Origin: Thermomicrobiales bacterium
GTDB taxonomy: Bacteria; Chloroflexota; Chloroflexia; Thermomicrobiales; UBA6265
Direction: 5' to 3'
NCBI GenBank assembly: GCA_042408955.1
Contig: JBHOQQ010000046.1
Span: 725-64,724 of the forward strand
DNA length: 64,000 nucleotides
Part shown: piece after piece, positions 17,112 to 41,099 of the stretch
How the letters are laid out: each line of letters opens with the position of its first letter
Position numbering within the stretch: the first letter of the stretch is position 1
Position numbers and translations under genes: made by a program
Notes under the pieces: model-generated
Database searches by the model: none
The model's input: only the letters and a program-made list of their open reading frames with translations
What the model was told of the DNA's origin: nothing

Positions 17112-17140
17112 CCGATGCTTGGCAACGTATAGGGAGCCTT

Positions 17141-17461
17141 ATGGAAACAGCATTCCGCCGGGCACGCATTCTCGATCCGGCGGCTATCGAGCGTAAGCTC
17201 GCGCTGAACACGTATAACGTTGACCGGGGCCGGGCACATATTCGCATCATTGACCGCGATGTCTGTCTCCGATGCGCCCGGCAGCAGTGCATCAATTGCT
17301 GTCCGGCCAATTGCTACACGCCACAGGATGACGGGCGCGTCCTCTTCTCGTATGAGGGATGCGTCGAGTGCGGCACCTGCCGTATCGTCTGCTACGAATT
17401 CCAGAACATTGAGTGGACGTATCCGCGCGGCGGCTACGGCATCCAGTACCGGCACGGCTAA
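17141..17461 (+). CDS. fixX: FixX-like ferredoxin-like protein
   Basis: 106 aa: ...HIRIIDRDVCLRCARQQCINCCPANCY...YEGCVECGTCRIVC...WTYPRGGYGIQYRHG. Size and Cys pattern match FixX-type proteins associated with ETF-QO. Confidence 0.7.
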   Translation: METAFRRARILDPAAIERKLALNTYNVDRGRAHIRIIDRDVCLRCARQQCINCCPANCYTPQDDGRVLFSYEGCVECGTCRIVCYEFQNIEWTYPRGGYGIQYRHG

Positions 17462-17548
17462 CTCAGCGCCGGGCTGCTGGGCATGTTGTCGGATGCCCAC
17501 ACGCCCCAGCTGCCTCGCGGCATGCGCGACATGTGAGGCGGAATCACG

Positions 17549-18061
17549 ATGTATTGGACCAAGAAGCACGTGCTCGTCTGCACCGCGTCTCACTGCTCCC
17601 AAAAAGGAGCGAACGACGTGGTTGGGAAACTTCGCCTGGAGATCGTCCGGCGCAAGCTTGATGCTGAGATTTTGGTCAATACCTGCGGCACCATCGACTT
17701 GTGCGACATCGGCCCGAATGTCATCGTCTACCCCGACGGCATTATCTATCGGGGTGTTACGGTGAAGGACCTACCGGAAATCATCGAGCACCTGAAGGGC
17801 GGGCCGGTGGTTGAGCGATTGGTTCTGGGACCGCACACTCCCGACGAGGAAGCGCGCCGCGCGTTCTATCGGGCCGCGGTTACTCCAGAACCTGCCCGCC
17901 CGGCCTCAGCGTTCCGCGCGCTAGCAGCCGAGCATGGCTTTGATGAGCCCTGGATCGCCGAGCAATTGCGACGCGGCTTCATCGCGCGCAAGCCCAGCCC
18001 CGACGGCGGTGAAGAGCTGATCGTGGTCACAAGCAAAGCCCGAACGCGCTACGGCGTGTGA
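17549..18061 (+). CDS. Thioredoxin-like [2Fe-2S] ferredoxin domain protein with C-terminal extension
   Basis: Translation KKHVLVCTASHCSQKGANDV...LVNTCGTIDLCDIGPNVIVYPDGIIYRGV shows the C-x4-C...C-x5-C pattern of thioredoxin-like ferredoxins. Confidence 0.7.
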   Translation: MYWTKKHVLVCTASHCSQKGANDVVGKLRLEIVRRKLDAEILVNTCGTIDLCDIGPNVIVYPDGIIYRGVTVKDLPEIIEHLKGGPVVERLVLGPHTPDEEARRAFYRAAVTPEPARPASAFRALAAEHGFDEPWIAEQLRRGFIARKPSPDGGEELIVVTSKARTRYGV

Positions 18062-21407: not shown

Positions 21408-24400
21408 CTAGGTGACGAGCGCTCGCTTCGCATCTGCTTCGTTCCTCCAATCCAGCATGGAGATGGAGAGATCCTTGCTGAGGAGCGAGCGCAATTCCTC
21501 CTCCGGCATCGGCCGGGCAAACCAGTAGCCCTGCCCCCGGTCGACATTGCATACCTTCAGCCAGTCGAGTTGCGCGTCCGACTCGATGCCTTTCGCCGTG
21601 ATGTGCATGCCCAGCTCGTGCGCTAACCAGGAAATGGACCGCACGACTGCCATATTGACGTGCTTGTTTTCGGCGGCTGCGATGAGGTGCCGGTCAAGCT
21701 TGACACCGTCGAAGGGCATCGCTCGTAAGCAGTCGAAGCTGCTGTGACCGGTGCCGAAGTCGTCAATCACGAGGCGGACGCCGATTCCGCGCAACCGCAT
21801 CAAATTCTGTTGCACTACTTCACGATTGAGCACATCGAGATCACCGGTCAATTCTAGCTCCAGTAGCTCGGGGCGCAGCCCGGTCTCGTCTAAAATGGCG
21901 CTCACGCTGCCAGCAAGATCGTGATGCTCAAGGTGCCGCGCCGAGACGTTTACGGCCACCGCGATCTCCGCTCGTGCCCCGTCCGCCAGCCACTGCTTGC
22001 CAGCGCGGCATGCCTCGCGCAACACCCACTCACCTAACGGCGCTGCCGAGCCTGACGCTTCGGCAATGTGGATGAACTGAGAAGCGGGCAGCATGCCCAA
22101 CTTCGGATGTTGCCACCGCACCAGTGCCTCAAGCGCGACGATGGTGGTTCCTTCGAGATCGAAAATCGGCTGGTAGTGCAAGCAGAGCTGATTGCGTTCG
22201 ATCGCCAGCCGGATGTCGGTCTCCTGCTTGAGGCGTGTCCGGACCTTGGCAGCCATGCGTGGTTCGTAGATCGCAAACGTGCGCCGGCCCGAGCCCTTCG
22301 CCTCGTACAACGCGATATCGGCGTTCCGCAAGAGATCACGTGGGTGCATCCGGCCATTCCACCCCTGAGCAACCCCGATGCTGACGCCGATGCGAACCTC
22401 CTGGCCATCGAGGCGATACGGCTCCTGGACGACATCTATCAGGCGGCGCGCGATTGCCGCGACGGCATCCAGCGATTCACTGGAATGCAGCAGCACCGCG
22501 AACTCGTCGCCTCCGAGCCGCGCCACGATGTCTTCGCCACGGATCACTTTCTGCAACCGCTTCGCGACCTCGACAAGCAACCGGTCACCCGTGTCATGGC
22601 CGAGCGTATCATTGACGAGCTTGAAGCCATCAAGGTCGAGGAAGAGCACAGCAACGCCGCTTGACAGCCGGGCACTCGCCGCAACCGCTTCCTCCAAGCG
22701 CTCCATGAAATATGCGCGGTTGGCCAGGCCAGTCAGCGGGTCATGAAGCGCCAGATGTCGGTAACGCTCTTGGCTCTCGCGCAGTGCTTCCTCCGCGCGG
22801 TACCGGTCGGTGACATCGGCAAGCGTGCCAATCATCCCAGTCACGCTCCCATTGCCGTCAAGCAACGCCCGGGCTCGAACTTCGCAGACGCGAACCACCC
22901 CGGTTGCCGTCACGATCCGCCGTTCCCGGCGGCACTCCGCACGATTGTCTGCCAAGAGATGACAGAAGCTCTGGAAGCTGTCGGCACGGTCATCCGGGTG
23001 GAAAAACTCGAGAAAGTTCTTGCCCAAGCAGGCTTCAACGGCAAAGCCAGTCAGCTCTGTCCACGCTGGATTGAGAAACGTCCAACGACCTTCGCAGTCA
23101 GTTTGAAAAATGACCTCGTGCACGCTCTCGACGACGGTGCGATAGCGCCGCTCGCTCTCGCGGGCTTCCTTATAGAGTCGCGCGCGCTGAATGGCCGAGC
23201 TAACATGCTCGGCAAGGGCCAGCATCAACCGGAGATCACCTTCGGTCAGCGAACCGGGCTCGGTGCTTTCCAGGTTGAGAATGCCGGCTACCCGCCCTTC
23301 GTCATGAAGGGGAACACAGACCTCAGACACAACGCCATCGAACGCCGCCAGGAAGTCCGGGTCCGCCGGACCGTACGGCAAGTAGACTGGCTGGCCAGTG
23401 CGAGCGACGCGGCCAGTGATCCCCCGGTCGAGGGGAATTCGCTCGATCACTTGCGGGTAACCGATCTGATGCTGCAGCACTAGCTCACCGTGCTCGAGCA
23501 AATAGACGCTGACCAATCGGTAACCAAATGCATGCGCCACCGCTTCGACCACGGCCCGGATGACCGTGGGCACGTCCATCTCCCGCGCGATAGCGGTCCG
23601 CACCTCGTGCAGCAAATGGAGTTCGCGCGCCTGGCGTTCGGCCGCCTCCCGCAGCTTTCGTTGCTGGCGCTCACTCTCTCGCAACGCTTCCGCCATGGCG
23701 CGTTGCTCAGTGATGTCGAAGATGACACCTTGCCAGTAAAGGGGCCGTCCTTGGGCGTCTCGCACCAGCACCGCTTCATCCCGCACCCAGAAATACGACC
23801 CATCTGACCGGCGCTGGCGATACTCACGCCGGTATGGCGCTTGCTCCCGAGCGATCCGCTCTTCCTCCGCGGCGATGCGCTCCACATCGTCCGGGTGCAT
23901 GATCTCCCACCGAAAGTTGGGATTCTCAAGCGACCGGCTCGGTGGGTACCCGAACATGGCCTCCATCTGCGGACTGATATAGAGGATGCGCTGCTCTCCT
24001 TCGGCTTGCATCAGATACGTAACCGCTGGAATCTGCTCGATAAGCGTGCGGAACCGGAGATCAGTCTCCTCAAGCTGCGCTTCTACGCGCAGACGATCCG
24101 TGATATCGCGGGCATTGAGGATGATCCCTTCAACGGCAGGATCATCGAGCAGGTTGGTTGCGATCACCTCGAAGGTACGCACCGAGCCGTTCGCCGCTCG
24201 CGTCGCGATCTCGGCGCGCACAGGCTGTCCGGGATGAGCCAGCGCGTCGGCATACAGCAGATTCAGCCGCTCCTGATTTTCCCGGTCCCGGATCGGATCG
24301 TTGAGCACATTGACGTTGATCATCGCCTCGGGAGGATAGCCGAGCACACGCTCAACCGACGGGCTAATCCAGGTCCTGACGCCCTCGCGGTTGACCACCG

Positions 24401-24860
24401 AAATCACATCGCCAGAGTGCTGCACAAGTGAGCGAAACCAGGCCTCATTGCGGCACAGCGCCTCGGTCGCTTTGGCTCGCTCGGCAAGCATGACCGCCTG
24501 CCGCTCCGCCAACGCAATCCGAGCTTCGAGCCACTCAAGGCGAAATGGCTTCGTCAGGTAATCGTTCGCGCCGGCCGCCACGACCGCGTCCACGTCCTCC
24601 CGGTCACTATGGCCAGTCAACACCAGAATGACGCTTTCCTCTCCTCCTGGCCGTGCGCGGAGCCGCCGGCATAGCTCCAGCCCATCCATGCCAGGCAACC
24701 CCCAATCGAGCACCACGATCGGAATCGCCTCATCGTCCGTGACGGCCAGCGCCTCTTCTGCGCTACTACAGGCGATGACGTCATGACCACGCTGCCGCAG
24801 CAGTGCCTCCACGACCTCTCGGATACCGGCGTTGTCCTCAACAACGAGCACCCTTGCCAT
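21408..24860 (-). CDS. Response-regulator receiver / multi-PAS / GAF / GGDEF / EAL c-di-GMP signalling protein
   Basis: N-terminal REC domain (MARVLVVEDN...VVLDWGLPGMDG...TKPF), several PAS-like blocks and a GAF block (VPLHDEGRVAGILNLES). Diguanylate cyclase motif RLGGDEFAVLL and EAL motif VALEALVRWQHP are both present, with DDFGTGHSS. ATG 24860 preferred; GTG 24899 is possible. Confidence 0.9.
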   Translation of the reverse strand: MARVLVVEDNAGIREVVEALLRQRGHDVIACSSAEEALAVTDDEAIPIVVLDWGLPGMDGLELCRRLRARPGGEESVILVLTGHSDREDVDAVVAAGANDYLTKPFRLEWLEARIALAERQAVMLAERAKATEALCRNEAWFRSLVQHSGDVISVVNREGVRTWISPSVERVLGYPPEAMINVNVLNDPIRDRENQERLNLLYADALAHPGQPVRAEIATRAANGSVRTFEVIATNLLDDPAVEGIILNARDITDRLRVEAQLEETDLRFRTLIEQIPAVTYLMQAEGEQRILYISPQMEAMFGYPPSRSLENPNFRWEIMHPDDVERIAAEEERIAREQAPYRREYRQRRSDGSYFWVRDEAVLVRDAQGRPLYWQGVIFDITEQRAMAEALRESERQQRKLREAAERQARELHLLHEVRTAIAREMDVPTVIRAVVEAVAHAFGYRLVSVYLLEHGELVLQHQIGYPQVIERIPLDRGITGRVARTGQPVYLPYGPADPDFLAAFDGVVSEVCVPLHDEGRVAGILNLESTEPGSLTEGDLRLMLALAEHVSSAIQRARLYKEARESERRYRTVVESVHEVIFQTDCEGRWTFLNPAWTELTGFAVEACLGKNFLEFFHPDDRADSFQSFCHLLADNRAECRRERRIVTATGVVRVCEVRARALLDGNGSVTGMIGTLADVTDRYRAEEALRESQERYRHLALHDPLTGLANRAYFMERLEEAVAASARLSSGVAVLFLDLDGFKLVNDTLGHDTGDRLLVEVAKRLQKVIRGEDIVARLGGDEFAVLLHSSESLDAVAAIARRLIDVVQEPYRLDGQEVRIGVSIGVAQGWNGRMHPRDLLRNADIALYEAKGSGRRTFAIYEPRMAAKVRTRLKQETDIRLAIERNQLCLHYQPIFDLEGTTIVALEALVRWQHPKLGMLPASQFIHIAEASGSAAPLGEWVLREACRAGKQWLADGARAEIAVAVNVSARHLEHHDLAGSVSAILDETGLRPELLELELTGDLDVLNREVVQQNLMRLRGIGVRLVIDDFGTGHSSFDCLRAMPFDGVKLDRHLIAAAENKHVNMAVVRSISWLAHELGMHITAKGIESDAQLDWLKVCNVDRGQGYWFARPMPEEELRSLLSKDLSISMLDWRNEADAKRALVT

Positions 24861-25118
24861 TTGCCCTACCATTCGCACCCACGCCAAGCACGCCGCCACG
24901 ATGCCGGTCGCTCGCGCTGTTTTACCTCGCTCCTGGTACCACCTGTTACCTCGCTGAGCATCTCCCTGCAGGAAACATGTGGCTGACTGCTGTTGCTGTG
25001 CGATAACCCCTCATCGCAGGTAGTATGCAAGGGGCAGAGGCGCGCGTAAGTCACTCGTTAGTCCCAAACTCCGCAAGTGCCTCTTTACCCACACAAAACG
25101 GCACGAAGGAGGACTTGT

Positions 25119-30210: not shown

Positions 30211-30801
30211 TTACTCTGAGAGGGACTTGATGTAGGCGATCAGATCGGCAATCTGCTGGTCGGTCAAGTAGTTGAACGGCGGCATCGCTGGCGGATACCC
30301 TTTGACGATCTTCGCCATGGGGTTCACGATCGATTCCCGAATATATGCATCGTCCGCCACGACCGTCTCACCGCTCTCCAGCTCGACCTGGCTGCCGTAG
30401 AGTCCTTTCCAGGTCGGCCCAACCAGCGTCGAACCGTCCGTCGAGTGGCAGGCAAGGCATTGCGCGGCCAGTTGCCGCCCGCGCTCGACATCACCAACGA
30501 TACCCGCGGCTTCCGTCGCGGGTGGCGATGCGACTGGCGAGGCAACCGGCGAAGCAGCTGGCGACGCGGCTGGCGAGGCTGCCGGGGAAATCGGGGTTGC
30601 CACGACGCTCGTTGCCTCCGGTGAGGCCGCCTCCGCGGCCGTCGGCGTCGTGCCGGGCGCGCCCTCGACCGGTATCCGCGTCACGGTCGGCTTCGCCTCT
30701 TCTTCCGGCTTGCCGCACGCGCCGAGGATGGCAACCGCTACAATCGCAACGAGCAGAACTCCCCGCTTGACCACTGAGCCCCTCCCTCCTCGCCCGGTCA
30801 T
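30211..30801 (-). CDS. Lipoprotein mono-haem c-type cytochrome (last gene of the nos cluster)
   Basis: Lipobox VAILGAC, a long SPAASPAASPAASPVASPVASP linker, haem motif CLACHS, and downstream Met in a class I cytochrome c fold. ATG 30801 follows GGTGAGGGG. Confidence 0.8.
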   Translation of the reverse strand: MTGRGGRGSVVKRGVLLVAIVAVAILGACGKPEEEAKPTVTRIPVEGAPGTTPTAAEAASPEATSVVATPISPAASPAASPAASPVASPVASPPATEAAGIVGDVERGRQLAAQCLACHSTDGSTLVGPTWKGLYGSQVELESGETVVADDAYIRESIVNPMAKIVKGYPPAMPPFNYLTDQQIADLIAYIKSLSE

Positions 30802-30820
30802 CCCCTCACCAACCAGGCTG

Positions 30821-31282
30821 CTACGACATTCTCGCTCCAATCTTCCAATTCTGCACGATTTCCTGCCAGGTCATCACCTGGCCCCCTTTCTCTGCCGCCA
30901 GGCGCTCCGCCTCCTCGCGCGTTTTCAGGGCCACGACACCGGTGCCCATCGGCGTCATCAATTCGTCATCGACCACAAAATACGCTTGAGTTCCGTCGAT
31001 CCACTCCTTCGTCGTGTAATCGTGCACCCAGACGCGGCGGTCGTTCAATCCCTCCTCCTGGACCTGCGCGACCAGCTCTCCGGGATCATCGAACAGCAAA
31101 GCGTCTCCGTCGGACTCGACCAGCCCTGCTGCAAAACGCTCGTCCGAGATGATCATGCGGCAACGGGCACACAGGTCCTTGCCGTACGAGATCTTCGGTG
31201 GTTCCGTGGCACTTGTCTTGTTACCACACGCGGTGAGGAGGAATGCCGCGCTTCCGAGCACGAACATGCGGCGATGCATCAT
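30821..31282 (-). CDS. nosL: NosL copper-chaperone lipoprotein
   Basis: MMHRRMFVLGSAAFLLTACG lipobox, and CARCRMIISDERFAAG typical of NosL. The start overlaps the nosY stop. Confidence 0.85.
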   Translation of the reverse strand: MMHRRMFVLGSAAFLLTACGNKTSATEPPKISYGKDLCARCRMIISDERFAAGLVESDGDALLFDDPGELVAQVQEEGLNDRRVWVHDYTTKEWIDGTQAYFVVDDELMTPMGTGVVALKTREEAERLAAEKGGQVMTWQEIVQNWKIGARMS

Positions 31283-32112
31283 CGGATATCCGTCCTTTTG
31301 AAGAGGAAGTACCCAGCCGGCAACGGCAGCACCACCCACAAGGCCAGCAAGCCAAGCAACACCGGCGCGAGGAGCCGTCCAAGCTGCTCGGTGGCGTAGG
31401 CTCCAGCCGGGCCGAGCACATCCAGCGACGCCTGAAGTTGATCGACAGTCAGCAGCTTATAGACATCGAGAGGATTGACCAGCGTCAGAGTCAGCAGCGT
31501 TTCGGGGCTCAGGTCCATAACGAGGGCGCTGCCCATCAGCCCCAGGTCGCCAACGATCACGAACGCCAGCCAGAGGGTGACAGCGATTCCCAGCGCTGCC
31601 GATGTCTGACTGGTGAAGCTGGAGACGAGATAGCCGATGCTGAGGGTGCCCAATCCAAGCAACAAGGTCAGAACGACCAGCAACGCGAAATCACCGATGC
31701 CAGCCGCGCCGCCTCGCACGGCGAGCACCAACCCTGCGCTGCCGAAACCTAGCAGGAGCGTCGAGGCAAGGCAAAGAGCGACCCCAAGATATTTGCCGAG
31801 GAAAACCTCCGCCGGTGAGACCGGTTGTGCGAGAAGGTAGTCGAGACCGCGGCCTTCCCGCTCTCCAACGAGCGATTGAGCGCCGGCAGTCAGGCCGATG
31901 AGCGGCACCATCAGCAGCATCAAATTGAGCAGTCCCGCCGAGGTCCGACCAAAACCCGGCTCTCCGGTCAACGCCGAGCCACCCATCGCGACCACCGCAA
32001 ACCCGATGCTCAGCACCGCAAAGACGACGGCATACAGCGCAAACCACTTGCTGCGTAATCCCGCTCGCGTTTCTCGCGCCGCGATAGCCGCGATCATCGC
32101 TCTATCCATCAC
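31279..32112 (-). CDS. nosY: NosY ABC-2 permease
   Basis: 277 aa with 6 TM segments, ABC-2 type, between nosF and nosL. GTGA overlap with the nosF stop. Confidence 0.8.
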   Translation of the reverse strand: MMDRAMIAAIAARETRAGLRSKWFALYAVVFAVLSIGFAVVAMGGSALTGEPGFGRTSAGLLNLMLLMVPLIGLTAGAQSLVGEREGRGLDYLLAQPVSPAEVFLGKYLGVALCLASTLLLGFGSAGLVLAVRGGAAGIGDFALLVVLTLLLGLGTLSIGYLVSSFTSQTSAALGIAVTLWLAFVIVGDLGLMGSALVMDLSPETLLTLTLVNPLDVYKLLTVDQLQASLDVLGPAGAYATEQLGRLLAPVLLGLLALWVVLPLPAGYFLFKRTDIR

Positions 32113-33005
32113 AACCGCTCCATGTCGAAATCGTCGATCTCAATGCCCTGCTTCGCCAGATGCGCCAGCACGCGTGCTTTGTCTCGTGTGGGGACCGGAA
32201 CGCTGACCACGTGACCGCTGCCCGTCGGCGAAAGGCCGAGGCGCACAAGGGCATCGAGCGTCTCGTGCACATGGCCATTCTTCAAGACGAGCACGAGCTT
32301 GGTGGCCGAGCCAATCTCCTCCCGGAACGTTGCCGGAGTGGCAGAGCGGCGCAACACCCCGCGCTCGATCATGAGAATGCGATCGGCAAGCATCAGCACG
32401 TCGTCCGGCCGGTGCGAGGAGAACACCACGGTTAGTCCTTGGCGATGATACGTGCGCAAGAGGTCAAGGAGTTCGGCGCGTCCGCGGGCATCAAGATTGG
32501 CGGTCGGCTCGTCCAATAGCAGGATCTTCGGTGACCCGATCAGCGCGAGCGCCAAGGCGAGCCGCTGCTTCATTCCCCCGGATAGTGCGCTGATGGGTTT
32601 GTCTATGTGCTCGGCGATGCCGAGCGTTGTGAGCTGCTCCATGGCGGCAGTGAAGGACGACCGCTTGATCGTGGCGACAAAGGCGACCATCTCGCCCACT
32701 GTCTCCGGGGAGATTGGCAAATCTTGCGGCACGTAGCCGATTAGCTGGCGAACCGCCCGGCCGTCACGCTGAGGGTCCTTCCCATCCACGCGAATCTGCC
32801 CATCATAGTGAGCAAGCCCGAGGAGACAGCGGAGCACGGTGGTTTTGCCGGCGCCGTTCGGCCCCCACAGGGCCACCGCCTCGCCTGGAAAGACCTCGAA
32901 GCTGATCCCATCGAGCGCGGCCACCTGCCCGTAGCGCTTGGTCACGTCCTGAACAGCGATTGCTGGCGAAGTTGCGTCGATGGAGCTCTGGTGCAAGCTA
33001 TGCAT
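32109..33005 (-). CDS. nosF: NosF ABC ATPase
   Basis: Walker A GPNGAGKTT, LSGGMKQRL, LLLDEPTANLD. Position in the nos cluster supports the call. Confidence 0.85.
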   Translation of the reverse strand: MHSLHQSSIDATSPAIAVQDVTKRYGQVAALDGISFEVFPGEAVALWGPNGAGKTTVLRCLLGLAHYDGQIRVDGKDPQRDGRAVRQLIGYVPQDLPISPETVGEMVAFVATIKRSSFTAAMEQLTTLGIAEHIDKPISALSGGMKQRLALALALIGSPKILLLDEPTANLDARGRAELLDLLRTYHRQGLTVVFSSHRPDDVLMLADRILMIERGVLRRSATPATFREEIGSATKLVLVLKNGHVHETLDALVRLGLSPTGSGHVVSVPVPTRDKARVLAHLAKQGIEIDDFDMERL

Positions 33006-33008
33006 GGA

Positions 33009-34484
33009 TCAGACTCCTCTCGCTCTCATCGGGGCGAGTCTACGCCGCGCTGTCACGGTCGCGGGCCGCAGGCGAAGGATGAAGAACGCGACGCCGATGA
33101 GGGCAAGCGTGCTCACAATGCCCAGCGTCACCCGCGATCCCTCTGAGGCAGCATCAACCGGCGGCAGGTAGGGTGAGACGGGCGCGGCCATCAGCGGAGC
33201 AGGATCCTCGAACTTTACTTCCGGCCGCACCTCGGGAAACGCCTTGGCTGCAAAATCGACGGCCATCGCCGCTGGGCTAAACAGGAACAGGCGTAACTCC
33301 GGATGCTGATCGGTCAGCCGCTCGAAGAGGCGCTGGGACCGGTACGGCCGGTCGCCAACGCCATCGCCATTGGCGTCATAGCCGGCGTAATCGCTCCAAT
33401 AGTTGCCCCGGCCATCCACCGCCCACGTCATGTCTTTTAGTTGGCCCCGGCCGATAATTGCTACATGCTCAGTATTATCCAGAAAGGCATTCCCGGTCAG
33501 GGTGTTGTGAGACACCGACGGCATGAAGCCGATCCCTATTTCATTGAACGCGAACACATTGTCCCGCCAGTAATTCTCGATGCCGCGCTCGCGCGGAGAG
33601 GTGTCTACCTGCGCCCCAATATTGTTGTGGACAAAGCGGTTCCCCTCCACCACGGCGCGATCGACATCTTTGAATCCGAGCCCGCCGCCGCTTGGCCCAC
33701 GGTTGTCCGAAAGATTGTTGCCGATGATGACCGGGTCCCGGCCATACATGATGTAAAGTCCGATCGAGTTGGCGCGCAGCGAGTTGCCTTCGATCCGGGC
33801 ACGATCGCTAAACATCAGGTGCAAGCCGTACCGGCTCCGATTGAATGCGTTGTTGCGCACGAGCGCGCGGTTCGAATACCACAGGATAATATCGCGGCCA
33901 TCACTGGCCTGATTCCCTTCGATGACGACGTCATCACAATACCAGATTTTGATGCTATCACCGCGCATCGCGATATCAACCGGTTTCGCGAGCACAATGT
34001 TATCCTTGATGACACTACCCGGCGCCTGCTTGAGGTAAATGCCGAAGAGAGCATCTTCGATCCGGTTATTGATCACCGTTGCACGGCCACCATCGAACAC
34101 GATCGCTGCATCTTCCTGATCGTGATTCATCCCGGTGCCACGGATGGTAAAGCCCTGAATCGTTACGTCTGCCCCGACGACACGGACCACTGTGCCCCGT
34201 CCGCCGCCGTCAATGACGGGATGGTCAACGCCCCGCAAGACCAGCGGCTTGTCAATGACAAGGCCACCTGGGTAGACGCCCCCCCGCACTTCGATAGTCG
34301 CACCGGCCGGAGCCGCCGCAACCGCCTCCGCGAGCGACGTCTGGGCGCAGGTGGGACAGACGAGCATCGCTTCGTCTGTCGCCCCGGCTGCGAGGTGCAG
34401 CGCCCCCCCGGTCACGATCGCCGTGAGGAGCGCAAGCACCAAGGCGGGCCGCCGCGGCCAGCGCTTCCCGCTACCGAGCAGCAT
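33009..34484 (-). CDS. nosD: NosD periplasmic parallel-beta-helix maturation protein, with an extra C-terminal TM anchor
   Basis: Signal peptide, repeated beta-helix units (GNxxxxNxxGIxL-type: IEGNSLRANSIGLYIMY, GNNLSDNRG, EGNRFVHNNIGAQV, TGNAFLDNTEHVAI). C-terminal TLGIVSTLALIGVAFFIL. ATG 34484 has a GGAGAG RBS and overlaps the upstream gene by 14 nt. Confidence 0.85.
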   Translation of the reverse strand: MLLGSGKRWPRRPALVLALLTAIVTGGALHLAAGATDEAMLVCPTCAQTSLAEAVAAAPAGATIEVRGGVYPGGLVIDKPLVLRGVDHPVIDGGGRGTVVRVVGADVTIQGFTIRGTGMNHDQEDAAIVFDGGRATVINNRIEDALFGIYLKQAPGSVIKDNIVLAKPVDIAMRGDSIKIWYCDDVVIEGNQASDGRDIILWYSNRALVRNNAFNRSRYGLHLMFSDRARIEGNSLRANSIGLYIMYGRDPVIIGNNLSDNRGPSGGGLGFKDVDRAVVEGNRFVHNNIGAQVDTSPRERGIENYWRDNVFAFNEIGIGFMPSVSHNTLTGNAFLDNTEHVAIIGRGQLKDMTWAVDGRGNYWSDYAGYDANGDGVGDRPYRSQRLFERLTDQHPELRLFLFSPAAMAVDFAAKAFPEVRPEVKFEDPAPLMAAPVSPYLPPVDAASEGSRVTLGIVSTLALIGVAFFILRLRPATVTARRRLAPMRARGV

Positions 34485-35136
34485 TGCTGGCTCTCCGCCC
34501 AATGATCGTGGCCACGAGCACGACAACGGCCGCGGCAACTGCCATCCAGAATCCGAGCTCAAAGTGTGCCTGCGTGCTGAACTGCCCGATCGTCCCTTTC
34601 CCGATGAGTCTTGGAGTGAACTCGTGGATCGAGCTGCTCAGCGGCGCATGCGGATCGAGCGAATGGCCAGCGTAGTACAGCCAGGCCAAGAGATCGGCGA
34701 CGAACACAATGGGATAGATCATGAGTGGCACGCGAGCGAGCCAGTGCCGCGCCCCACGCAGCCAGAACGATACCACCGCCAGCGCCGCCAGAATCGGGAT
34801 GCCTATGCGTGAGATGCTGCGTTCAATAGTCGCCGCATCTGTCAGCCGGATCATGCCAATGTAATGGTTCAGCCCGTCCACCTCGCGGACATTCTTGGGT
34901 GGCTCCATCTTGTACACGTAAATATCGACACCCAGTCCACGCGGGTATTGCGGCGCATGAAGGGTGATGTGCCAGTAGGGGTAGAAGATCGAAAGGATAA
35001 CAAGCGCGCCACCGATCACCAGCAGCGGGAGCTCAAGGCGTCGCACGAGCGCCCGGCTCAGCGAGACCGCACGTCTCTCGGTCTTCGGCACGGCCTTAGC
35101 TGGAGCCGCGACGTTCATCGGCTGACTGATTGCCAT
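34471..35136 (-). CDS. 4-TM membrane protein between nosZ and nosD (NosB-like by position)
   Basis: ATG 35136 is preceded by GAGGAGG. Four predicted TM helices with a ~60-aa external loop (HITLHAPQYPRGLGVDIYVYKM...). The NosB assignment rests on synteny, not on recognised motifs. Confidence 0.6.
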   Translation of the reverse strand: MAISQPMNVAAPAKAVPKTERRAVSLSRALVRRLELPLLVIGGALVILSIFYPYWHITLHAPQYPRGLGVDIYVYKMEPPKNVREVDGLNHYIGMIRLTDAATIERSISRIGIPILAALAVVSFWLRGARHWLARVPLMIYPIVFVADLLAWLYYAGHSLDPHAPLSSSIHEFTPRLIGKGTIGQFSTQAHFELGFWMAVAAAVVVLVATIIGRRASNAAR

Positions 35137-35293
35137 AGGAACCTCCTCGTTTCCTCGAAATCCTGCCTTGATCCGCGCCCGTGCGCTGGGATCGTCCTCT
35201 GCTTGGTACGGTAGCCCCGGATGTATCGCAGGCACGTCATTTTCCAACCGTTCACTGTTACAGATGCATAAACTCGCTTCGGCTCTGGCGCTG

Positions 35294-35326
35294 GTCAAAA
35301 CGTGGGGAGGGCTCGTGTCCCTCCCC
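35294..35326 (-). terminator. Intrinsic terminator 2 downstream of nosZ
   Basis: Minus-strand GGGGAGGG-acacgag-CCCTCCCC (perfect 8-bp stem) followed by ACGTTTTGA. Confidence 0.6.
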
Positions 35327-35335
35327 AGCAAGGCC

Positions 35336-35356
35336 CAAAAACCCGGTGGAGCCGGG
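35336..35356 (-). terminator. Intrinsic terminator 1 downstream of nosZ
   Basis: Minus-strand CCCGG-ctcca-CCGGG followed by TTTTTGG, 50 nt after the nosZ stop. Confidence 0.5.
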
Positions 35357-35406
35357 CGCTAGCAGCTAATGGCTGGCGCTGGCGCCCGTCGCTCCTCTCC
35401 GCTCCC

Positions 35407-37410
35407 CTACGGTGTGACGAGAAGATATCCCATCATCTCCAGGTGCAGCGCCGAGCAGAACTCGGTGCAGTAGAACGGGTAAACACCTGGGCGGTCGGCG
35501 ATGAACGTAATCGTCGTCGCTTCACCGGGCTCGATGCTCAGGTTGATGTTCTGGCCCGGCAACGCGAACCCATGCGTTGCATCGTCCGCCTGCTCGATAT
35601 TGGTGATGTGCCACGTCACCCGGTTGCCGAGCTTGACTTCGATCACGTCCGGAGTGAGGTGGCTGCGCACGACCGTCATATTGACGGTAACCTCGTTGCC
35701 ATTCACCACCACGCCCTCTTTGCCCGGCTCGACCTTGTTGGGCGACGGCGACTGCGTCATTGGATCCCAGCCGACTTCTGGGTAAACCGGGTAAGGTTTG
35801 ATCTTTTCCGCGCGAATCGTCTGCACGTAATGCGGCTCTCCGATACCGATCGGCATGTCGTAGAGGAGCTGCATCGTATCGCCGCTGATATCCACAAGCT
35901 GGAAGTTCTGCGGGCGCAGCGGGCCAACTGGCGCGAACCTGTCGATGGACCACTTGTTGAGGCCGATCAGGAACTTGCCCTGCGGCGTTGTGGTGTCGCC
36001 CTCGATGACGGACAGGTGGCCGATGTTATAGGCCATTGGCAGCTTGTCCACGAGGGTCCAGCCACCCTCGACCCCTTCACCGCCCAGCTTCCAGCGCGCA
36101 ACCGCGCTGTCGAGGAACAGGCTCGTGTAGGCATAGCCTTTATCATCGAACTGGGTGTGCAGCGGCCCAAGACCAAGCTCCACTTGCGCTTCCACGCACG
36201 CCTCATACGGCAGCACCGGAACGCCGAACTCGTCTGGCTGGAAGTTCCCGGCAGCGATGGCATCCATGATCTTCTGGAAGCTGTAAACGGTGACGTGCGG
36301 GTCGAGTTTGCCGGCGACGACGATGTACTTGCCGTCAGGAGTGACGTCCACGCCGTGCGGGCTCTTGGGCTCCGGCACCTGATAGAGGATCCCTTCGGCC
36401 ACCGCGGTGCCCATCCGGATCAGCTTCATGCCATTGACGTCTTCGGCTTTCCCCGCGGCGACGACCTCGGCCGCCTTCTGCCAGTTGATGACGGTGAGGT
36501 AATCCATGTCACGCACGGAGGCACCGGCTTCAACTGGCGGCTGCCCCTGCAGGATGCCACCAGTGGACATCTCAGTATTGAGCGTGTTGGAGAAGGACCA
36601 GCCGAAGCTTGGCCCCTTGCCCGCATCTGCTAGGTCATTCCAGTACGGAGGAAGCTCAACCGTGAAGGACTCCTCCGGCACGATGCGGCCCGTGTCCCGG
36701 TTGAACTTCCAGTAGGTCATCGCGCCGCGGTATTTCTCCTTGTACTCGGAGAGCGGAGCGTACTCCCACCCGATTGGCGTCGCGTACTGCGCCCCGTCGA
36801 TGATGTACTCGGTGTTCGGCGTGACGAACGCTCCACCGTGGTTACTAATCACATGCGGATTCTTCACGATTTGCTTCGTCTCGAAGTCTCGCAGGTCAAT
36901 CACGGCGATCCGGCCATGCGCCTTGTCGTTGATAAACAGCCACTGGCCATCGTACTCACCATTCGTCTCGGACAGGGCAGGATGGTGCGTATCGGCCCAC
37001 GTGACTGGCTTACCATTGACATTCCCTTGGGCCAGCACGGCCTTCGTCTCATCAGAGAAGCCGTAACCCTGCCACGGCTCCGGCGTGAAGACACCGATAA
37101 CTTTCAGCAGGCGCATCGAAGGAACACCAATCACGAGCACCTGACCAGAGTGTCCGCCTGACGCAAAGATGTAGTACTCATCAAGACGGCCGCTCGGCAT
37201 GTACGTTTTGAGGGCGGCGCTCACATCCTCCGGAGTGAGCCCGCGCTGATTGGCGATCTGCGCTGCCACGTCCTCAATCGGTCCCGCGGCAGCCTTCTCG
37301 TGGCGCCCCAGAAGCGGCACAGCCGCCGCTGCGCCCGCAGCGCCCGCTGCGGAGCCTTTCAGCACCGCCCGCCGGTTTACCCGGCGCCGAATCACGTCCT
37401 GGCTACCCAT
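35407..37410 (-). CDS. nosZ: Nitrous-oxide reductase NosZ
   Basis: Beta-propeller CuZ region (WADTHHPALSETNGEYDGQWLFINDKAHGRIAVIDL) and C-terminal CuA motif FYCTEFCSALHLEMMGYLLV. The N-terminus has RRRVNRRAVLKGSAAGAAGAAAAVP (twin-arginine-like). ATG 37410 lies 8 nt after AAGGAGG. Confidence 0.92.
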   Translation of the reverse strand: MGSQDVIRRRVNRRAVLKGSAAGAAGAAAAVPLLGRHEKAAAGPIEDVAAQIANQRGLTPEDVSAALKTYMPSGRLDEYYIFASGGHSGQVLVIGVPSMRLLKVIGVFTPEPWQGYGFSDETKAVLAQGNVNGKPVTWADTHHPALSETNGEYDGQWLFINDKAHGRIAVIDLRDFETKQIVKNPHVISNHGGAFVTPNTEYIIDGAQYATPIGWEYAPLSEYKEKYRGAMTYWKFNRDTGRIVPEESFTVELPPYWNDLADAGKGPSFGWSFSNTLNTEMSTGGILQGQPPVEAGASVRDMDYLTVINWQKAAEVVAAGKAEDVNGMKLIRMGTAVAEGILYQVPEPKSPHGVDVTPDGKYIVVAGKLDPHVTVYSFQKIMDAIAAGNFQPDEFGVPVLPYEACVEAQVELGLGPLHTQFDDKGYAYTSLFLDSAVARWKLGGEGVEGGWTLVDKLPMAYNIGHLSVIEGDTTTPQGKFLIGLNKWSIDRFAPVGPLRPQNFQLVDISGDTMQLLYDMPIGIGEPHYVQTIRAEKIKPYPVYPEVGWDPMTQSPSPNKVEPGKEGVVVNGNEVTVNMTVVRSHLTPDVIEVKLGNRVTWHITNIEQADDATHGFALPGQNINLSIEPGEATTITFIADRPGVYPFYCTEFCSALHLEMMGYLLVTP

Positions 37411-37647
37411 GTCATGGCCTCCTTGCTGATATTCCCACCCGCGGGCAATCAAAGACCGTCCCGTCAGGTAAATCGCCAAATCCTTGGTAGCAGCCCCGGA
37501 CACCGGCACGCCGCCAGCCAACCGCGATTACCTGGCAGAAGACTAGGAGGCCAGCAATTCCAACCGCGTATATCGGATGGGGAGCGACGTTGCAAAATCG
37601 TATCAACCCAACGCTCGCAATCGCGCAGCATTCAGGCTCCACGCCCT

Positions 37648-37686
37648 GACAAAACGCAAAGCGGCCCAGGCCGGAGCCTGAGCCGC
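37648..37686 (-). terminator. Strong intrinsic terminator upstream of the nosZ promoter region
   Basis: Minus-strand GCGGCTCAGGC-tccg-GCCTGGGCCGC (11-bp stem with one G-U) followed by TTTGCGTTTTGTC, 30 nt after the SBP pseudogene stop. Confidence 0.65.
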
Positions 37687-37715
37687 TCGCTGGTTGTGCT
37701 TGTGCTGCACAACTG

Positions 37716-39577
37716 CTATTGCTGCACGCGCACCCAGTTCGCAATGTTCCAATACAACGCTTCGAAGAGGCTGCCCGCGATATTGTCCTCGACGAAGCCG
37801 TTCGCGATCGCGAATTTCTCCGCCGCGCGGTTGACTAGCGGGATGACGACGACATCGTTGATGATAATGTCGTTCATCTTGATGAACGTCTCCGCCGCCC
37901 GCTCGGCATCCGTCTCCTTCAACAACGATTCATACAGGGCATCGTACTCCGGGTTCTGGTACCGCGACTCGTTCACTCCCGACCAGCCATTGGACTTCTG
38001 GGCAATGTTCGAGCCATTTGGCCCGGCGTACCAGCTCTGCATGTACGTCAGAGGAAACGTGGAGGTTGGTGAATTGGTATACATCTCCAGATCGCGGAAG
38101 AAGTGGCTCGCGTTCTGATCGTTGCCAGCGGCGCTATCGAAGAACACCGCGGCATCCACCTACCAAGTGTCACTTTGAAGCCCACGGCCTCCCAGTTCTG
38201 CTTGTTGACCGCCTGCGTCTGCTGGCGAACCGGGTTGATCGAGGTGAAGTAGGTCACCTTCAGCTCGATGTCACCCTTCTTGCGGACATCGCCGTCCATG
38301 ACCCATCCAGCCTCGTCAAGGACTTGCTTTGCCTTGTCAAGGTTGAATTCCCATGAGGTGTTCGGGGATTCCAACGCCGCGATGCCGGTCAGGATATTGA
38401 CCGCCGGCGGCTCCTGATCACCGCCAAGATAGAACTGGTTGGCAATCGTCGCACGGTCGCTCGCCAGCGACAGTGCCTGCCGGACCGCCTTGTCGGTCAG
38501 GAACGGATGCGGCACATCCTTGTGGGAACGTTCTCCTTTGGACTCGTCGTTCGGATCGGAGAAATTGATGAGCACGCGCTCAACGGCACCAAGACCTTGG
38601 GCAATCACCTTGCCTTTGCCGCCCTGCTGCTCCATCTCACGGAGGATGTTTGGCGCCACCTGCAGGTTCCAGGCGAAGTGCCAGTCACCAGTCTGGAGGA
38701 CTGCCTGTGCCGCCGAGGCTGCGTCGCCACCACCCTTGATGATGACGCGGGAGAAGAACGGCTTGTTCGGCTCACGATAGTTCTCGTTGATGACGTAGGT
38801 GACTTGGTCGTTCTCGGTGAAGCTCTCCACCTTGTAGGGTCCGGTGCCGATCGCGTTGCGCCGGAACTCGTCATTTGCCGCTTGCGGATCCTTACCATCC
38901 CAGAAATGCTTGGGATACACCGCTCCAACATAGGTGCCAGTGAAGGGGAAGTACCAGGCCAAGCTCCCCTCTTTAAAGATGAGCTTGACCGTCAAATCGT
39001 CGATCTTCTCGATGTTTTCGATGGCTTGGTAGGTCGTGAGGCTAACGGATTGGTTGGCCGGGTCGAGAATCCACTGCCAGGTGAAGATGACGTCGTCGGC
39101 AGTAAACGGCTCGCCATCGCTCCACTTGACGTCAGGTCGCAACTTATAGGTCACCGTCTTGAGATCAGGAGATAGCAAGCCGTTCTCCACGGAGGGGACC
39201 TCAGTCACCAGATTCGGAATCAGGGTGCCATCCGGGAGATAGTTCATCAGCGGCTCGGTGATGAGTGATGCCGCCAGGGAATCCTTGGTGCCGGTCGAGT
39301 TGTGCAGGCTCAGGTGCGTCGCCGCTTGCCACTGCAGAATCTTCAGCTCGCCACCCGCGCCACGTTGAATGTTTTCGGTTCCTACGGCGGGCCGCCCAGC
39401 CGGCGCTGATTGCGCCGCTGCTCCCTGCACTTTCACCGCGTTCAACACGAAGAGCACGATCGGCAGGCCAACGCCGAGCGACGTCGCTCTGGCGATGAAC
39501 TCCCGCCGGGTTATTCTCCCGGCTTTCAGGTCTTGATACACGCGCCAAAACGGGCCTTCTTCATACCGCTCGACCAT
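37716..39577 (-). pseudogene. Family-5 (peptide/nickel/Opp-type) ABC substrate-binding protein, disrupted by a 1-nt frameshift
   Basis: ORF 38048..39577 (Tat-like RITRREFIARATSLGVG; typical SBP_bac_5 sequence) loses frame after ..NWEAVGFKVTLG near 38160. The conserved continuation VDAAVFFDSAAGNDQNASHFF...YQNPEYDALY.. is in ORF 37716..38159. There are no partner permease or ATPase genes nearby. Confidence 0.7.
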
Positions 39578-39958: not shown

Positions 39959-40948
39959 TCAGCGCTCGACGGTAAAGCGCGTCTTCATGCCTAGCGCAAG
40001 GTGGGGCACTCCGTCCGGGTCAGGTAATAAGCAGACAAGCGCGTAGGATCCAGGACGCAAACCGACGAGAACGAGTTCCCCGCTCTGCCCCGCGGGAATG
40101 GTGACCTGGCCGACAAACGTTACGCCTTTCGGAAATCCAGGTCCAGGCTCGGTCAGCAAAACATCCGTGGATACACCGGCTGCGAGCCGGAGCACCAGCA
40201 ACTCGTGATCCTCTTTGCCCCGGTTCTCACCGGACAGCACCACATCCGGGCCCGGCACTCGCCGGGAAGAGAGGGAAAAGGAATAATCCTCGATTCGCAC
40301 GCGGATCTGGCTGGCATCGGCCGGGGGAACTGGCGCTCGGCTCGCGATATGATCAACGCGCCACCGCGCGGTCGATGTCCCGCGTTTTAGTGTCCAGGTT
40401 CCACGCTGGAGTTGATTGCCAAACACGCTCTCTACTTCGGCGGTGGCAGTCTTCGCGTCATCGAGGCTCGTTCCGGTTATCGCGAGAATAGTGAGCGGAA
40501 TTGCCGGGAGCATCTGGGAGAGTGCAAGATACTCCTCCCGGCTTAGCCGGTCGCCCCCACCATACATCTGGCCAAGAAAGCGCTCAGTAACCAGATCAGC
40601 CACAACGTCGGGCCTCCCTGCGGTGAGGCACGCTGCAAGCGCACGAATCACGGCCTCCACCTGCGCGACGCTCGCGGGATCGGCGGTAGCAGGCAACGCT
40701 TCCGGGCTTGCCGCCGGTGTCGCCAGCGCCGATGCGATGGGAGTCGCTCCGGCCGGCGTGGCCACCGTATCGCTCGGCACGGCGCACACCGAGCTAGCAG
40801 GATCTGTTCCGTCCTGGAAGATCGGACTTGCCACCGATTCAGCGGCAAACCAGCTACTCGCCAGCAGCCAGAAAGCAAAGCATGCTGTTCCCCAGCGCCA
40901 CCAGACACGCCCCAGCAGGGACGTCCCTCGCCCCGCTCGATTGCGCAT
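39959..40948 (-). CDS. Secreted two-domain protein: NTF2/SnoaL-like region plus C-terminal cupredoxin (type-1 copper-like) domain
   Basis: Signal/TM VWWRWGTACFAFWLLASSWFAAES. The C-terminus KEDHELLVLRL...PGSYALVCLLPDPDGVPHLALGMKTRFTV matches the His...Cys-x(n)-His-x4-Met ligand pattern of blue copper proteins. ATG 40948 has a GGGGAGAAGGG RBS. Confidence 0.6.
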   Translation of the reverse strand: MRNRAGRGTSLLGRVWWRWGTACFAFWLLASSWFAAESVASPIFQDGTDPASSVCAVPSDTVATPAGATPIASALATPAASPEALPATADPASVAQVEAVIRALAACLTAGRPDVVADLVTERFLGQMYGGGDRLSREEYLALSQMLPAIPLTILAITGTSLDDAKTATAEVESVFGNQLQRGTWTLKRGTSTARWRVDHIASRAPVPPADASQIRVRIEDYSFSLSSRRVPGPDVVLSGENRGKEDHELLVLRLAAGVSTDVLLTEPGPGFPKGVTFVGQVTIPAGQSGELVLVGLRPGSYALVCLLPDPDGVPHLALGMKTRFTVER

Positions 40949-41099
40949 CCGCACCCTTCTCCCCTGTCTGCTCACGCCGACTCCTTCTTGCCTGTGCCAT
41001 CCGCGTCGCTCTTCACTACTCTGCCCAGGATTGTAGACCAAGTTGAGCCGTATACTCGCCGAAATTCGTTCGTGTCGTGATGCGCAGCGGAGATGACAC

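Follow-up and report, generated by a model that had tools for sequence, protein, structure and literature searches.

A compact clade II nos operon with a predicted twin-arginine NosZ signal, from a Thermomicrobiales-like member of Chloroflexota

How is a nitrous-oxide reductase exported, matured and supplied with electrons when its gene cluster seems to combine features of two clades of the enzyme? This question is raised by a nos cluster located within a 64-kb stretch of DNA (the whole of which was analysed and is called the window here), which originates from an uncultured, probably thermophilic, Thermomicrobiales-like member of Chloroflexota. The DNA of the window recurs in hot-spring metagenomes, the matching runs being of DNA only. 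A preliminary description had presented the locus as an unusual mixed-clade hybrid with ‘no recognisable electron-input module’.

Gene content and layout of the cluster

The cluster is an intact, tightly packed operon of seven co-directional genes, whose order and identities, as first described, were supported by HMM and Pfam searches. With the best-supported gene starts retained, its features and those of its upstream neighbourhood are:

30211-37410, minus strand: whole operon, nosZ-nosB-nosD-nosF-nosY-nosL-cytochrome c
35407-37410, minus strand: nosZ, nitrous-oxide reductase assigned to clade II, 667 aa, with a predicted twin-arginine signal peptide
37357..37377, minus strand: codons of N-R-R-A-V-L-K (NosZ residues 12-18), twin-arginine motif fitting the Tat consensus
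36976..36993, minus strand: codons of D140-T-H-H-P-A145, the clade II form of the first CuZ ligand region, lacking the third His
34471-35136, minus strand: nosB, four-TM membrane protein, 221 aa
33009-34484, minus strand: nosD, periplasmic beta-helix maturation protein, 491 aa, carrying a signal/anchor at the N-terminus and a TM anchor at the C-terminus
32109-33005, minus strand: nosF, ATPase of the NosDFY ABC system (PF00005, ABC_tran, 114 bits), syntenic with NosF of relatives
31279-32112, minus strand: nosY, six-TM ABC-2 permease of the NosDFY system (PF12679, ABC2_membrane_2, 113 bits; six hydrophobic segments)
30821-31282, minus strand: nosL, copper-chaperone lipoprotein (PF05573, 61 bits, cutoff 24)
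30211-30801, minus strand: cytochrome c gene, lipoprotein monohaem class I cytochrome c (PF00034)
37659..37688, minus strand: terminator-like hairpin (13 bp, 9 G-C) between an upstream solute-binding protein (SBP) gene remnant and nosZ
39959-41041, same strand as the nos genes: gene for a cupredoxin-like protein, 2.5 kb 5' of nosZ

The accessory genes do overlap or nearly abut: the start of nosD lies 14 nt inside nosB, nosD and nosF are 3 nt apart, the nosF/nosY and nosY/nosL junctions are both 4 nt overlaps, and approximately 20 nt separate nosL from the cytochrome c gene. The sole larger gap (approx. 270 nt) falls between nosZ and nosB. A Shine-Dalgarno sequence, AAGGAGG (37424-37418), is located 8 nt 5' of the nosZ ATG. 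The hairpin, which comes from a consensus scan only, in a region where terminator-like sites do not exceed chance in total, would mark nosZ as the putative opening gene of a separate transcription unit.

Clade assignment and export signal of NosZ

The NosZ core belongs to clade II. NosZ reaches 897 bits against the clade II model TIGR04246 (cutoff 625), and it has the D-T-H-H-P-A stretch previously read as a clade II pattern. In this stretch, H142 and H143 pair with the ligands H129 and H130 of P. stutzeri NosZ, and A145 occupies the place of His132, a non-ligand. All seven CuZ histidines (3SBP H129, H130, H178, H326, H382, H433 and H494) and all CuA ligands (3SBP H583, C618, C622, H626 and M629) are kept, so that the two ligand sets expected of a functional NosZ are present in the sequence. 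The downstream nosB and the lack of nosR and nosX in the cluster are likewise clade II features. A clade I (typical) NosZ was rejected, as the Tat/clade I model TIGR04244 gave only 430 bits (cutoff 625), the third His of DxHHxH is absent and no nosR or apbE was detected in the window.

The usual Sec-type signal of clade II is the one feature that NosZ does not share. Its N-terminus, MGSQDVIRRRVNRRAVLKGSAAGAAGAAAAVPLLG, combines the twin-arginine (RR) motif with a weakly hydrophobic, Ala/Gly-rich h-region (12-residue Kyte-Doolittle maximum 1.68), as the preliminary description had noted and as expected from the Tat consensus (S/T-R-R-x-F-L-K-like motif plus weakly hydrophobic h-region). The signal is thus predicted to be of the Tat type. 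Since the 64-kb window contains no tat genes, we infer the export route from this signal and its conservation.

A Sec-exported NosZ like other clade II enzymes, or one anchored in the membrane through an uncleaved signal, with an RR motif that does not work as a Tat signal, would agree with the lack of tat genes in the window, with the fit of the mature enzyme to a model named ‘Sec-dependent’ and with a score slightly under the cutoff of the NCBIfam TAT_signal model TIGR01409 (16.5 versus 16.7 bits). We nevertheless regard this as distinctly unlikely. The motif is kept as [NSTD]-R-R-x-[VM]-[VIF]-[KR] in the six closest orthologues (6/6), hence in 7/7 clade members with the window NosZ, despite signals that are otherwise only loosely alike. 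Moreover, the h-regions of this Tat clade range uniformly from 1.6 to 2.2 (Kyte-Doolittle maximum), cleanly separated from the 2.4-3.6 of Sec-type orthologues. Strong RR-type signals are also found on other exported proteins of the window, namely the SBP (T-R-R-E-F-I), NosL and a peptidase, and Tat-type signals appear to be in wide use in this lineage. Finally, PRED-TAT gave a Tat call for analogous Chloroflexota NosZ (PMC11409646). The same study, citing Jones 2013 and Hein 2017, already described clade II clusters of Chloroflexota in which a Tat signal and nosB form a subgroup; a Tat signal is a known exception for Chloroflexota in the literature rather than a defining failure of clade II membership (PMC11409646).

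Maturation proteins and electron input

The 4-TM protein, whose gene had been placed in the NosB position by the preliminary description, is NosB by homology to the Campylobacterota references (Text S1 of PMC11409646): it matches Sulfurimonas denitrificans NosB-C2 (E 5e-24, with 31% identity across 161 aa) and Sulfurospirillum multivorans NosB (E 2e-18). Four TM helices are seen both by hydropathy and in an AlphaFold model (pLDDT 83), which also displays a small extracytoplasmic beta-sheet/helix domain; NosB proteins have either 4 or 6 TM helices (PMC11388526). The invariant motifs LNHYIGM (residues 89-95), APQYP and QF-T-A are present, as is YAGHS (residues 155-159), the Y-G-H-N-like stretch. 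Among 55 related loci, nosB lies immediately 3' of nosZ in 54, that is, in all those with downstream sequence to show it. NosB was reported as essential for N2O respiration in W. succinogenes, the sole such case (Hein 2017, as relayed by PMC11388526 and PMC13274427).

NosB is followed by a complete set of maturation genes, the models TIGR04247, PF00005, PF12679 and PF05573 together denoting a NosDFY-NosL system. In NosD (411 bits against TIGR04247, cutoff 300), two TM segments span residues 14-32 and 452-470; the second is the extra C-terminal anchor reported earlier, which is routine, as at least 36 of 48 relatives possess it. In 10 of 49 relatives, one ORF encodes both NosD and NosF. The NosL signal, MMHRRMFVLGSAAFLLTAC, contains the lipobox LTAC and an RR motif. 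Natural fusions of NosB to NosD, to NosD-NosF and to NosD-NosF-NosY exist and tie NosB to the maturation machine, and NosB-NosL fusions were reported together with the LNHYIGM motif (PMC9697520).

Pfam scans of selected window ORFs (greedy longest-ORF selection, at least 100 aa, leaving a few short or overlapping ORFs outside the set) detected no NosR, ApbE, NosG/H, Rieske protein or cytochrome b across the 64 kb. The NosGH/NosC1C2 module, in which NrfC/NrfD-like Fe-S and membrane subunits are joined by a pair of c-type cytochromes, is likewise absent from the scanned ORFs, for which the lack of nosR, nosX/apbE, nosG/nosH and nosC1/C2 stated in the preliminary description holds. An electron input is nevertheless recognisable in the terminal cytochrome c, the likely immediate donor. 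This protein consists of a lipid anchor (lipobox LGAC), a Pro/Ala/Ser linker of approximately 70 residues and a haem domain (CLACH) resembling the cytochrome c domain found in subunit II of the R. marinus caa3 oxidase (1W2L, E 4e-23) and the tethered cytochrome c_y (6XKW, E 1e-7); it bears no real resemblance to NosC2. In caa3 oxidase the haem domain of subunit II feeds CuA, and this likeness therefore makes the cytochrome c the likely electron input. We propose that it is likely to be the immediate donor to NosZ CuA. An orthologous gene is last in the clusters of three close relatives (L002, L004 and L052), and an analogous co-directional c-type cytochrome gene is last in most of the others.

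Two other routes of electron input were weighed. NosB itself could be a quinol-oxidising or electron-conducting module, feeding NosZ or the cytochrome c in place of NosGH or NosR. Indeed, Campylobacterota NosB is joined to the cytochrome c domain NosC2, a fusion that points to electron transfer rather than maturation, and electron transport is among the roles put forward for NosB (PMC9697520). However, the window NosB has neither Cys nor CxxCH nor a conserved intramembrane His pair for haem b, its APQYP, LNHYIGM and QF-T-A motifs lie on the extracytoplasmic face, and no redox membrane protein came up as a structural relative in Foldseek, which gave only a claudin/TARP-like architecture (E >= 2e-3). 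Fusions to NosD, NosF and NosY, and also NosL (PMC9697520), are moreover far more widespread. An electron-carrying NosB seems unlikely. Even less credit is given to the cupredoxin-like protein as the physiological donor instead of the cytochrome c, a reading we consider very improbable. Cupredoxin donors have parallels in the pseudoazurin of some clade I systems and in the auracyanin of Chloroflexus respiration. The C-terminal domain of the cupredoxin-like protein has the spacing H...C-x8-H-x4-M that type 1 copper sites typically show; the protein weakly matches auracyanin B across this region (E 0.06), and its gene is on the nos-gene strand. Yet the protein has no Pfam match, its gene is beside nos in 0 of 55 related loci, and an SBP gene and the terminator-like hairpin stand between it and nosZ, whereas the conserved last place in the operon belongs to the cytochrome c gene.

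Related clusters and proposed working

Far from being an unusual hybrid, the cluster is ordinary. The identical gene order is seen in approximately 50 of 55 related loci, drawn from six phyla. The window NosZ falls inside a monophyletic Thermomicrobiales/Sphaerobacteraceae clade (L001-L004, L008 and L052) with RR signals and, wherever the downstream contig is sufficient, the gene order of the window. This is the outcome that the preliminary description had itself named as refuting its hybrid reading, which is therefore not retained. NosZ identity to the window is 74-83% in five of these MAG clusters (L001-L004 and L008) and 70% in L052. The seven-gene order with lipoprotein cytochrome c, the RR motif and the NosD anchor all recur in L002, L004 and L052, the clusters of L001, L003 and L008 being partial. 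Differences are limited to ordinary sequence divergence and to the sole insertion case, L008, in which approximately 6 kb with a LuxR/STAND regulator separate nosZ from nosB. Soil studies have taken the ‘atypical’ nosZ of Thermomicrobium roseum as a reference (PMC5469825).

More distant systems share parts of this arrangement. MAGs of the Chloroflexota class OLB14 from Danish wastewater plants (PMC11409646), likened here by their published description, have the clade II core, Tat-type signal, downstream nosB and lack of nosR, but come from activated sludge rather than hot springs and from outside the Thermomicrobiales/Sphaerobacteraceae branch. The Bacillota clusters nosC-nosZ-nosB-nosDYF(L) of Schinkia/Bacillus azotoformans and thermophilic spore-formers (PMC11388526, PMC13274427, PMC3475470) also have a single c-type cytochrome, no NosGH or NosR, and membrane-tethered extracytoplasmic parts in a cell without outer membrane; they differ in a cytochrome gene placed before nosZ rather than last and in Sec-type rather than Tat-type NosZ signals. 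For such compact clusters, feeding by a bc-type complex is the accepted Bacillota model (PMC11388526; PMC13274427), with electrons passing from the general QcrABC complex to NosZ (PMC13274427). Wolinella succinogenes and other Campylobacterota (Hein et al. 2017) share the clade II NosZ, a homologous downstream NosB and NosDFYL, but have a NosG/H menaquinol dehydrogenase module and NosC1/C2, cytochrome c domains on NosZ and NosB (NosB-C2) and Sec export, in place of which the window has a Tat-type signal and none of these modules or domains. The clade I nosRZDFYL(X) clusters of Pseudomonas stutzeri and Paracoccus denitrificans resemble the window in Tat-type NosZ, metal ligands and NosDFY-NosL machine; the window NosZ differs in its clade I model score and missing third His, and its cluster has NosB instead of nosR and nosX/apbE.

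From these comparisons, the working of the operon may be outlined. NosZ would be exported by the Tat pathway, its signal replacing the usual Sec signal of clade II in this lineage. On the model of the homologous P. stutzeri system, the ABC-type NosDFY machine and the chaperone NosL would build the copper centres outside the cytoplasmic membrane. NosB, to judge from its fusions, would serve this machine as a docking platform or as a partner in the membrane. The lipid-anchored cytochrome c, through its long flexible linker, would deliver electrons to CuA, as its caa3 subunit II and cytochrome c_y likeness suggests. As no quinol:cytochrome c oxidoreductase genes lie in the 64-kb window, we infer the upstream path, in which the cytochrome would be reduced by a general enzyme of this type encoded elsewhere, either a bc-type complex or alternative complex III. 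NosB, NosD, NosY, NosL and the cytochrome c are all membrane-tethered; NosZ is the exception, its signal peptide being the only obvious tether. Such an arrangement fits an envelope without a conventional outer membrane, outer-membrane genes being absent in T. roseum (PMC2615216).

Taken as a whole, we are fairly confident that this is an intact and self-contained nos operon of clade II, working as outlined. It is a good but ordinary example, whose ‘mixed’ features are usual in its lineage and previously published, and it would encode the reduction of N2O, a greenhouse gas, to N2.

Layout, kinship and export signal of the nos operon

The preliminary description saw in this locus a mixed-clade hybrid without an electron-input module. 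Its descriptive observations are accurate in every detail. Indeed, the operon spans exactly 30211–37410 and consists of seven co-directional minus-strand ORFs, and with the best-supported starts its accessory genes do overlap or nearly abut (nosB/nosD, 14-nt overlap; nosD/nosF, 3 nt between; nosF/nosY and nosY/nosL, 4-nt overlap each). Six of the seven proteins are named by Pfam and NCBIfam.

Family assignments of the operon proteins and flanking features of the window
NosZ: TIGR04246 ‘Sec-dependent nitrous-oxide reductase’, 897 bits (cutoff 625); Tat/clade I model TIGR04244, 430 bits, under the cutoff of 625
NosD: TIGR04247, 411 bits
NosF: ABC ATPase
NosY: ABC-2 permease
NosL: PF05573, 61 bits
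Operon cytochrome: class I cytochrome c
37716–39577, minus strand: family 5 solute-binding protein gene, immediately upstream of nosZ, in two overlapping ORFs (38048–39577 and 37716–38159)
38048–39577, minus strand: solute-binding protein ORF with an RR-type signal, T-R-R-E-F-I, a strong Tat motif
39959–41041, minus strand: secreted cupredoxin-like protein without Pfam match; C-terminal H...C-x8-H-x4-M like a type 1 copper site
21408–24899, minus strand: signalling protein of 1163 aa (receiver, three PAS, GAF, GGDEF, EAL), approximately 5 kb downstream of the nos operon

The nosZ gene has a ribosome-binding site (AAGGAGG) 8 nt ahead of its ATG at 37410, and a strong terminator-like hairpin (37688–37659) lies between it and the upstream gene, in a promoter and terminator scan of the operon that overall was not above chance. 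The apparent split of that upstream gene suggests a frameshift, which would reflect a pseudogene or else an error of assembly. No FNR/CRP box was found upstream of nosZ in 37411–37715. Over the whole window, the FNR/CRP palindrome TTGAT-N4-ATCAA, with up to two mismatches, gave 28 loose matches versus 14 ± 4 expected from shuffles. The operon DNA recurs in hot-spring metagenomes, and none of the public runs matching it is an RNA run.

Alignment to the solved clade I enzymes, every one a distant relative of the window NosZ (approx. 290–354 bits), shows that all seven CuZ histidines (H129, H130, H178, H326, H382, H433 and H494, P. stutzeri numbering) and the CuA ligands (H583, C618, C622, H626 and M629) are kept. 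The D-T-H-H-P-A stretch reported earlier is present, and only the non-ligand third histidine of DxHHxH is replaced in it. NosZ therefore looks functional, and by its sequence it is of clade II.

A scan of a genome collection with the window NosZ provided 55 related loci, against which the seven window proteins were compared by tblastn. In Chloroflexota, Planctomycetota, Gemmatimonadota, Acidimicrobiia, Armatimonadota and Myxococcota alike, contigs of sufficient length keep the order nosZ, nosB, nosD, nosF, nosY, then nosL, then a cytochrome. All seven genes, including an orthologous cytochrome c, occur in the Thermomicrobiales loci L002, L004 and L052; in most other loci a gene of the same orientation, encoding one or two CxxCH motifs, lies just past the maturation genes, and in some just before nosZ. 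The genes that flank the operon in the window (those for the cupredoxin-like ORF, the solute-binding protein, an ABC-2 transporter, the GGDEF/EAL protein and others) were in no case found beside nos in relatives, nor was any link of the signalling protein to nos seen there; the seven genes are therefore the module. The cupredoxin-like protein, likewise not syntenic with nos in relatives, weakly matches auracyanin B (E 0.06). In one close Thermomicrobiales relative, L008, approximately 6 kb (12000–18000 of that locus) are inserted between nosZ and nosB, encoding a LuxR-family STAND-type regulator (AAA/NB-ARC, TPR and GerE) and ORFs of unknown function.

As previously claimed, the NosZ N-terminus (MGSQDVIRRRVNRRAVLKGSAAGAAGAAAAVPLLG) carries a good twin-arginine motif; it scores 16.5 with the NCBIfam Tat model, just under the cutoff of 16.7. 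The six nearest of the 55 loci (Thermomicrobiales, Sphaerobacteraceae and Thermomicrobia MAGs; NosZ identity 70–83%) form one clade with the window in a neighbour-joining NosZ tree, and all six orthologues show [NSTD]-R-R-x-[VM]-[VIF]-[KR] and, after it, a stretch rich in Ala and Gly. RR signals were judged by manual reading and by a hydrophobicity measure, the 12-residue hydropathy maximum: this maximum is 1.6–2.2 in every RR-bearing NosZ versus 2.4–3.6 in all others (from Anaerolineae, Caldilineaceae, Gemmatimonadota and Myxococcota), with no overlap. RR signals accompanied by a lipobox also sit on two further branches, one formed by L005/L006 and one by the actinobacterial L041, so that the switch from Sec to Tat seems to have happened more than once; Tat-type signals thus occupy at least three separate NosZ branches among the relatives examined. 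Moreover, the solute-binding protein, a peptidase and NosL of the window (the latter with H-R-R-M-F-V-L and a lipobox) also bear RR-type signals, so that such signals look like a habit of the genome and not a peculiarity of nos.

These results do not bear out the reading of an anomalous hybrid, as the gene order is common across the 55 loci, the Tat-type signal is lineage-wide, and the tree places the window NosZ in a clade sharing both. The locus is intact and typical of compact clade II nos operons, and the Tat-type signal of its NosZ is a lineage trait. The rule of thumb that classifies nosZ by Sec versus Tat fails predictably, by lineage, and annotation pipelines that sort nosZ clades by signal peptide are affected. 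This exception is already in print: PMC11409646 describes, with reference to Jones et al. 2013 and Hein et al. 2017, a Tat signal with nosB in clade II Chloroflexota. The nosZ of Thermomicrobium roseum is a standard ‘atypical’ reference (PMC5469825).

Electron supply to NosZ

Pfam scans of the greedily chosen longest ORFs of at least 100 aa, a set that spans all but a few short or overlapping ones, detected no NosR, ApbE, NosG/H, Rieske protein or cytochrome b in the 64-kb window, and the reported absence of nosR, nosX/apbE and nosG/nosH is right on that scale. The further statement that no electron-input module is recognisable is not borne out: the operon's final gene encodes a recognisable electron carrier. 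Indeed, this cytochrome c combines a lipobox (LGAC), a Pro/Ala/Ser-rich linker of approximately 70 residues and a monohaem domain, a layout like that of membrane-tethered cytochrome c_y (6XKW, 1e-7), and the nearest solved relative of its haem domain is the cytochrome c domain of the Rhodothermus marinus caa3 oxidase subunit II (1W2L, E 4e-23). The NosZ CuA domain, for its part, shares homology with oxidase subunit II. In caa3 oxidases, the cytochrome c domain of subunit II transfers electrons directly to the CuA centre.

The most economical reading is that electrons would pass from quinol to a bc-type complex or alternative complex III whose genes lie elsewhere and from there, presumably, to the tethered cytochrome c, which by homology would reduce CuA of NosZ, with onward transfer to CuZ. 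In L004 and L008, two close relatives, no electron-transfer genes were found beside nos; the only genes recognised there encode a LuxR/STAND regulator and a PAS histidine kinase. Compact nosC-nosZ-nosB-nosDYF(L) clusters without NosGH are described in Bacillota (PMC11388526), and a proteomics-backed model for Schinkia leads electrons from QcrABC to NosZ (PMC13274427). The membrane tethering of NosB, NosD, NosY, NosL and the cytochrome fits the lack of outer-membrane biogenesis genes in T. roseum (PMC2615216).

The possibility that the cytochrome is a split-off NosC2, the cytochrome c domain carried by Campylobacterota NosB, was rejected, as only the haem motif aligns. Its linker contains a short tandem peptide repeat (30500–30650, minus strand; SPAASPAASPAASPVASPVASP), and this low-complexity tether may vary in length between strains.

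NosB, NosD and the maturation machinery

The 221-aa protein between nosZ and nosD (34471–35136, minus strand) has no family match in Pfam or NCBIfam, neither of which holds a NosB model. Comparison with the NosB references in Text S1 of PMC11409646 shows it to be NosB by homology, in the NosB position pointed out in the preliminary description: BLASTP aligned it with Sulfurimonas denitrificans NosB-C2 (31% identity over 161 residues, E 5e-24) and with the Sulfurospirillum multivorans protein (E 2e-18), both of which carry a C-terminal cytochrome c (NosC2) extension that the window protein lacks. A homology search returned more than 2300 relatives, inconsistently annotated in public sources as ‘cytochrome C’, ‘copper chaperone NosL’ or ‘hypothetical’, names that probably stem from NosB-NosC2 and NosB-NosL fusion proteins.

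Across 56 aligned orthologues, P-x-W, APQYP-x-GL, E85, LNHYIGM (89–95), W152, G157, F-x-P and QF-x-T-x-A are invariant or nearly so; LNHYIGM and a Y-G-H-N-like stretch were noted earlier by van Spanning (2011), as quoted in a passage of PMC9697520. A confident AlphaFold model (pLDDT 83, pTM 0.77) predicts four transmembrane helices and a small outer-face domain of two beta-hairpins and a short helix. Foldseek found no significant relative of this model in the PDB (best E 2e-3, TM-score 0.4–0.5), and kinship with claudin/TARP-type four-helix bundles with an extracellular sheet was rejected, the likeness being one of architecture only (E ≥ 2e-3). NosB is reported to have four or six transmembrane helices, to adjoin NosZ and to be essential in W. 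succinogenes (PMC11388526).

Searching 1.84 billion cluster representatives with a profile recovered 1019 NosB relatives. Among the 150 best, 29 are 600–1290 aa long with NosB at the N-terminus, and by Pfam the long ones are single ORFs reading NosB-NosD, NosB-NosD-NosF and, in one case, NosB-NosD-NosF-NosY (representatives P0121, P0127, P0133, P0137, P0139, P0143 and P0157; loci L056–L077 and L053). The continuous NosB-NosD fusion occurs in more than 20 Phycisphaerales MAGs, a closed chromosome included, as well as in L053, and is lineage-wide in Phycisphaerales. NosB-NosL fusions are published (PMC9697520); we found no literature mention of fusions to NosD, NosF or NosY, which Hein et al. 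2017 or later reviews may note.

These fusions, the nosB/nosD overlap and the outer-face His/Met motif lead us to favour a role for NosB beside the NosDFY-NosL assembly machine over one as quinol dehydrogenase. An electron-transfer function is kept alive by the NosB-NosC2 fusions of Campylobacterota, but NosB lacks cysteines, haem motifs and any conserved pair of intramembrane histidines; it may also be a docking platform for both maturation and electron transfer. More specifically, we tentatively propose, with rather less than even confidence, that NosB is not an electron carrier but belongs to the NosDFY-NosL machine for copper-centre assembly as its integral fifth component, LNHYIGM aiding Cu(I) handover or apo-NosZ docking.

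The C-terminal transmembrane anchor described as an extra of NosD is present, but routine: at least 36 of 48 relatives have such a segment with a basic tail. NosD and NosF form a single ORF in 10 of 49 related loci (L005, L006, L009, L022, L028, L038, L041, L043, L049 and L051); the anchor is thus probably a topological link by which the polypeptide re-crosses the membrane towards the cytoplasmic ATPase.

No biological sink for N2O other than N2O reductase is known. Clade II enzymes dominate many environments. The locus, from an uncultured organism, is a well-preserved and probably thermophilic addition to the compact clade II operons. Its wider value is NosB, whose natural fusions to NosD, NosF and NosY are a testable lead to membership of the maturation machine. 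If NosB is indeed a fifth component, the seven-gene Thermomicrobiales operon would be a minimal complete clade II system without a dedicated quinol dehydrogenase and, its NosZ being probably Tat-exported, a natural test case for the effect of export route on CuZ assembly.
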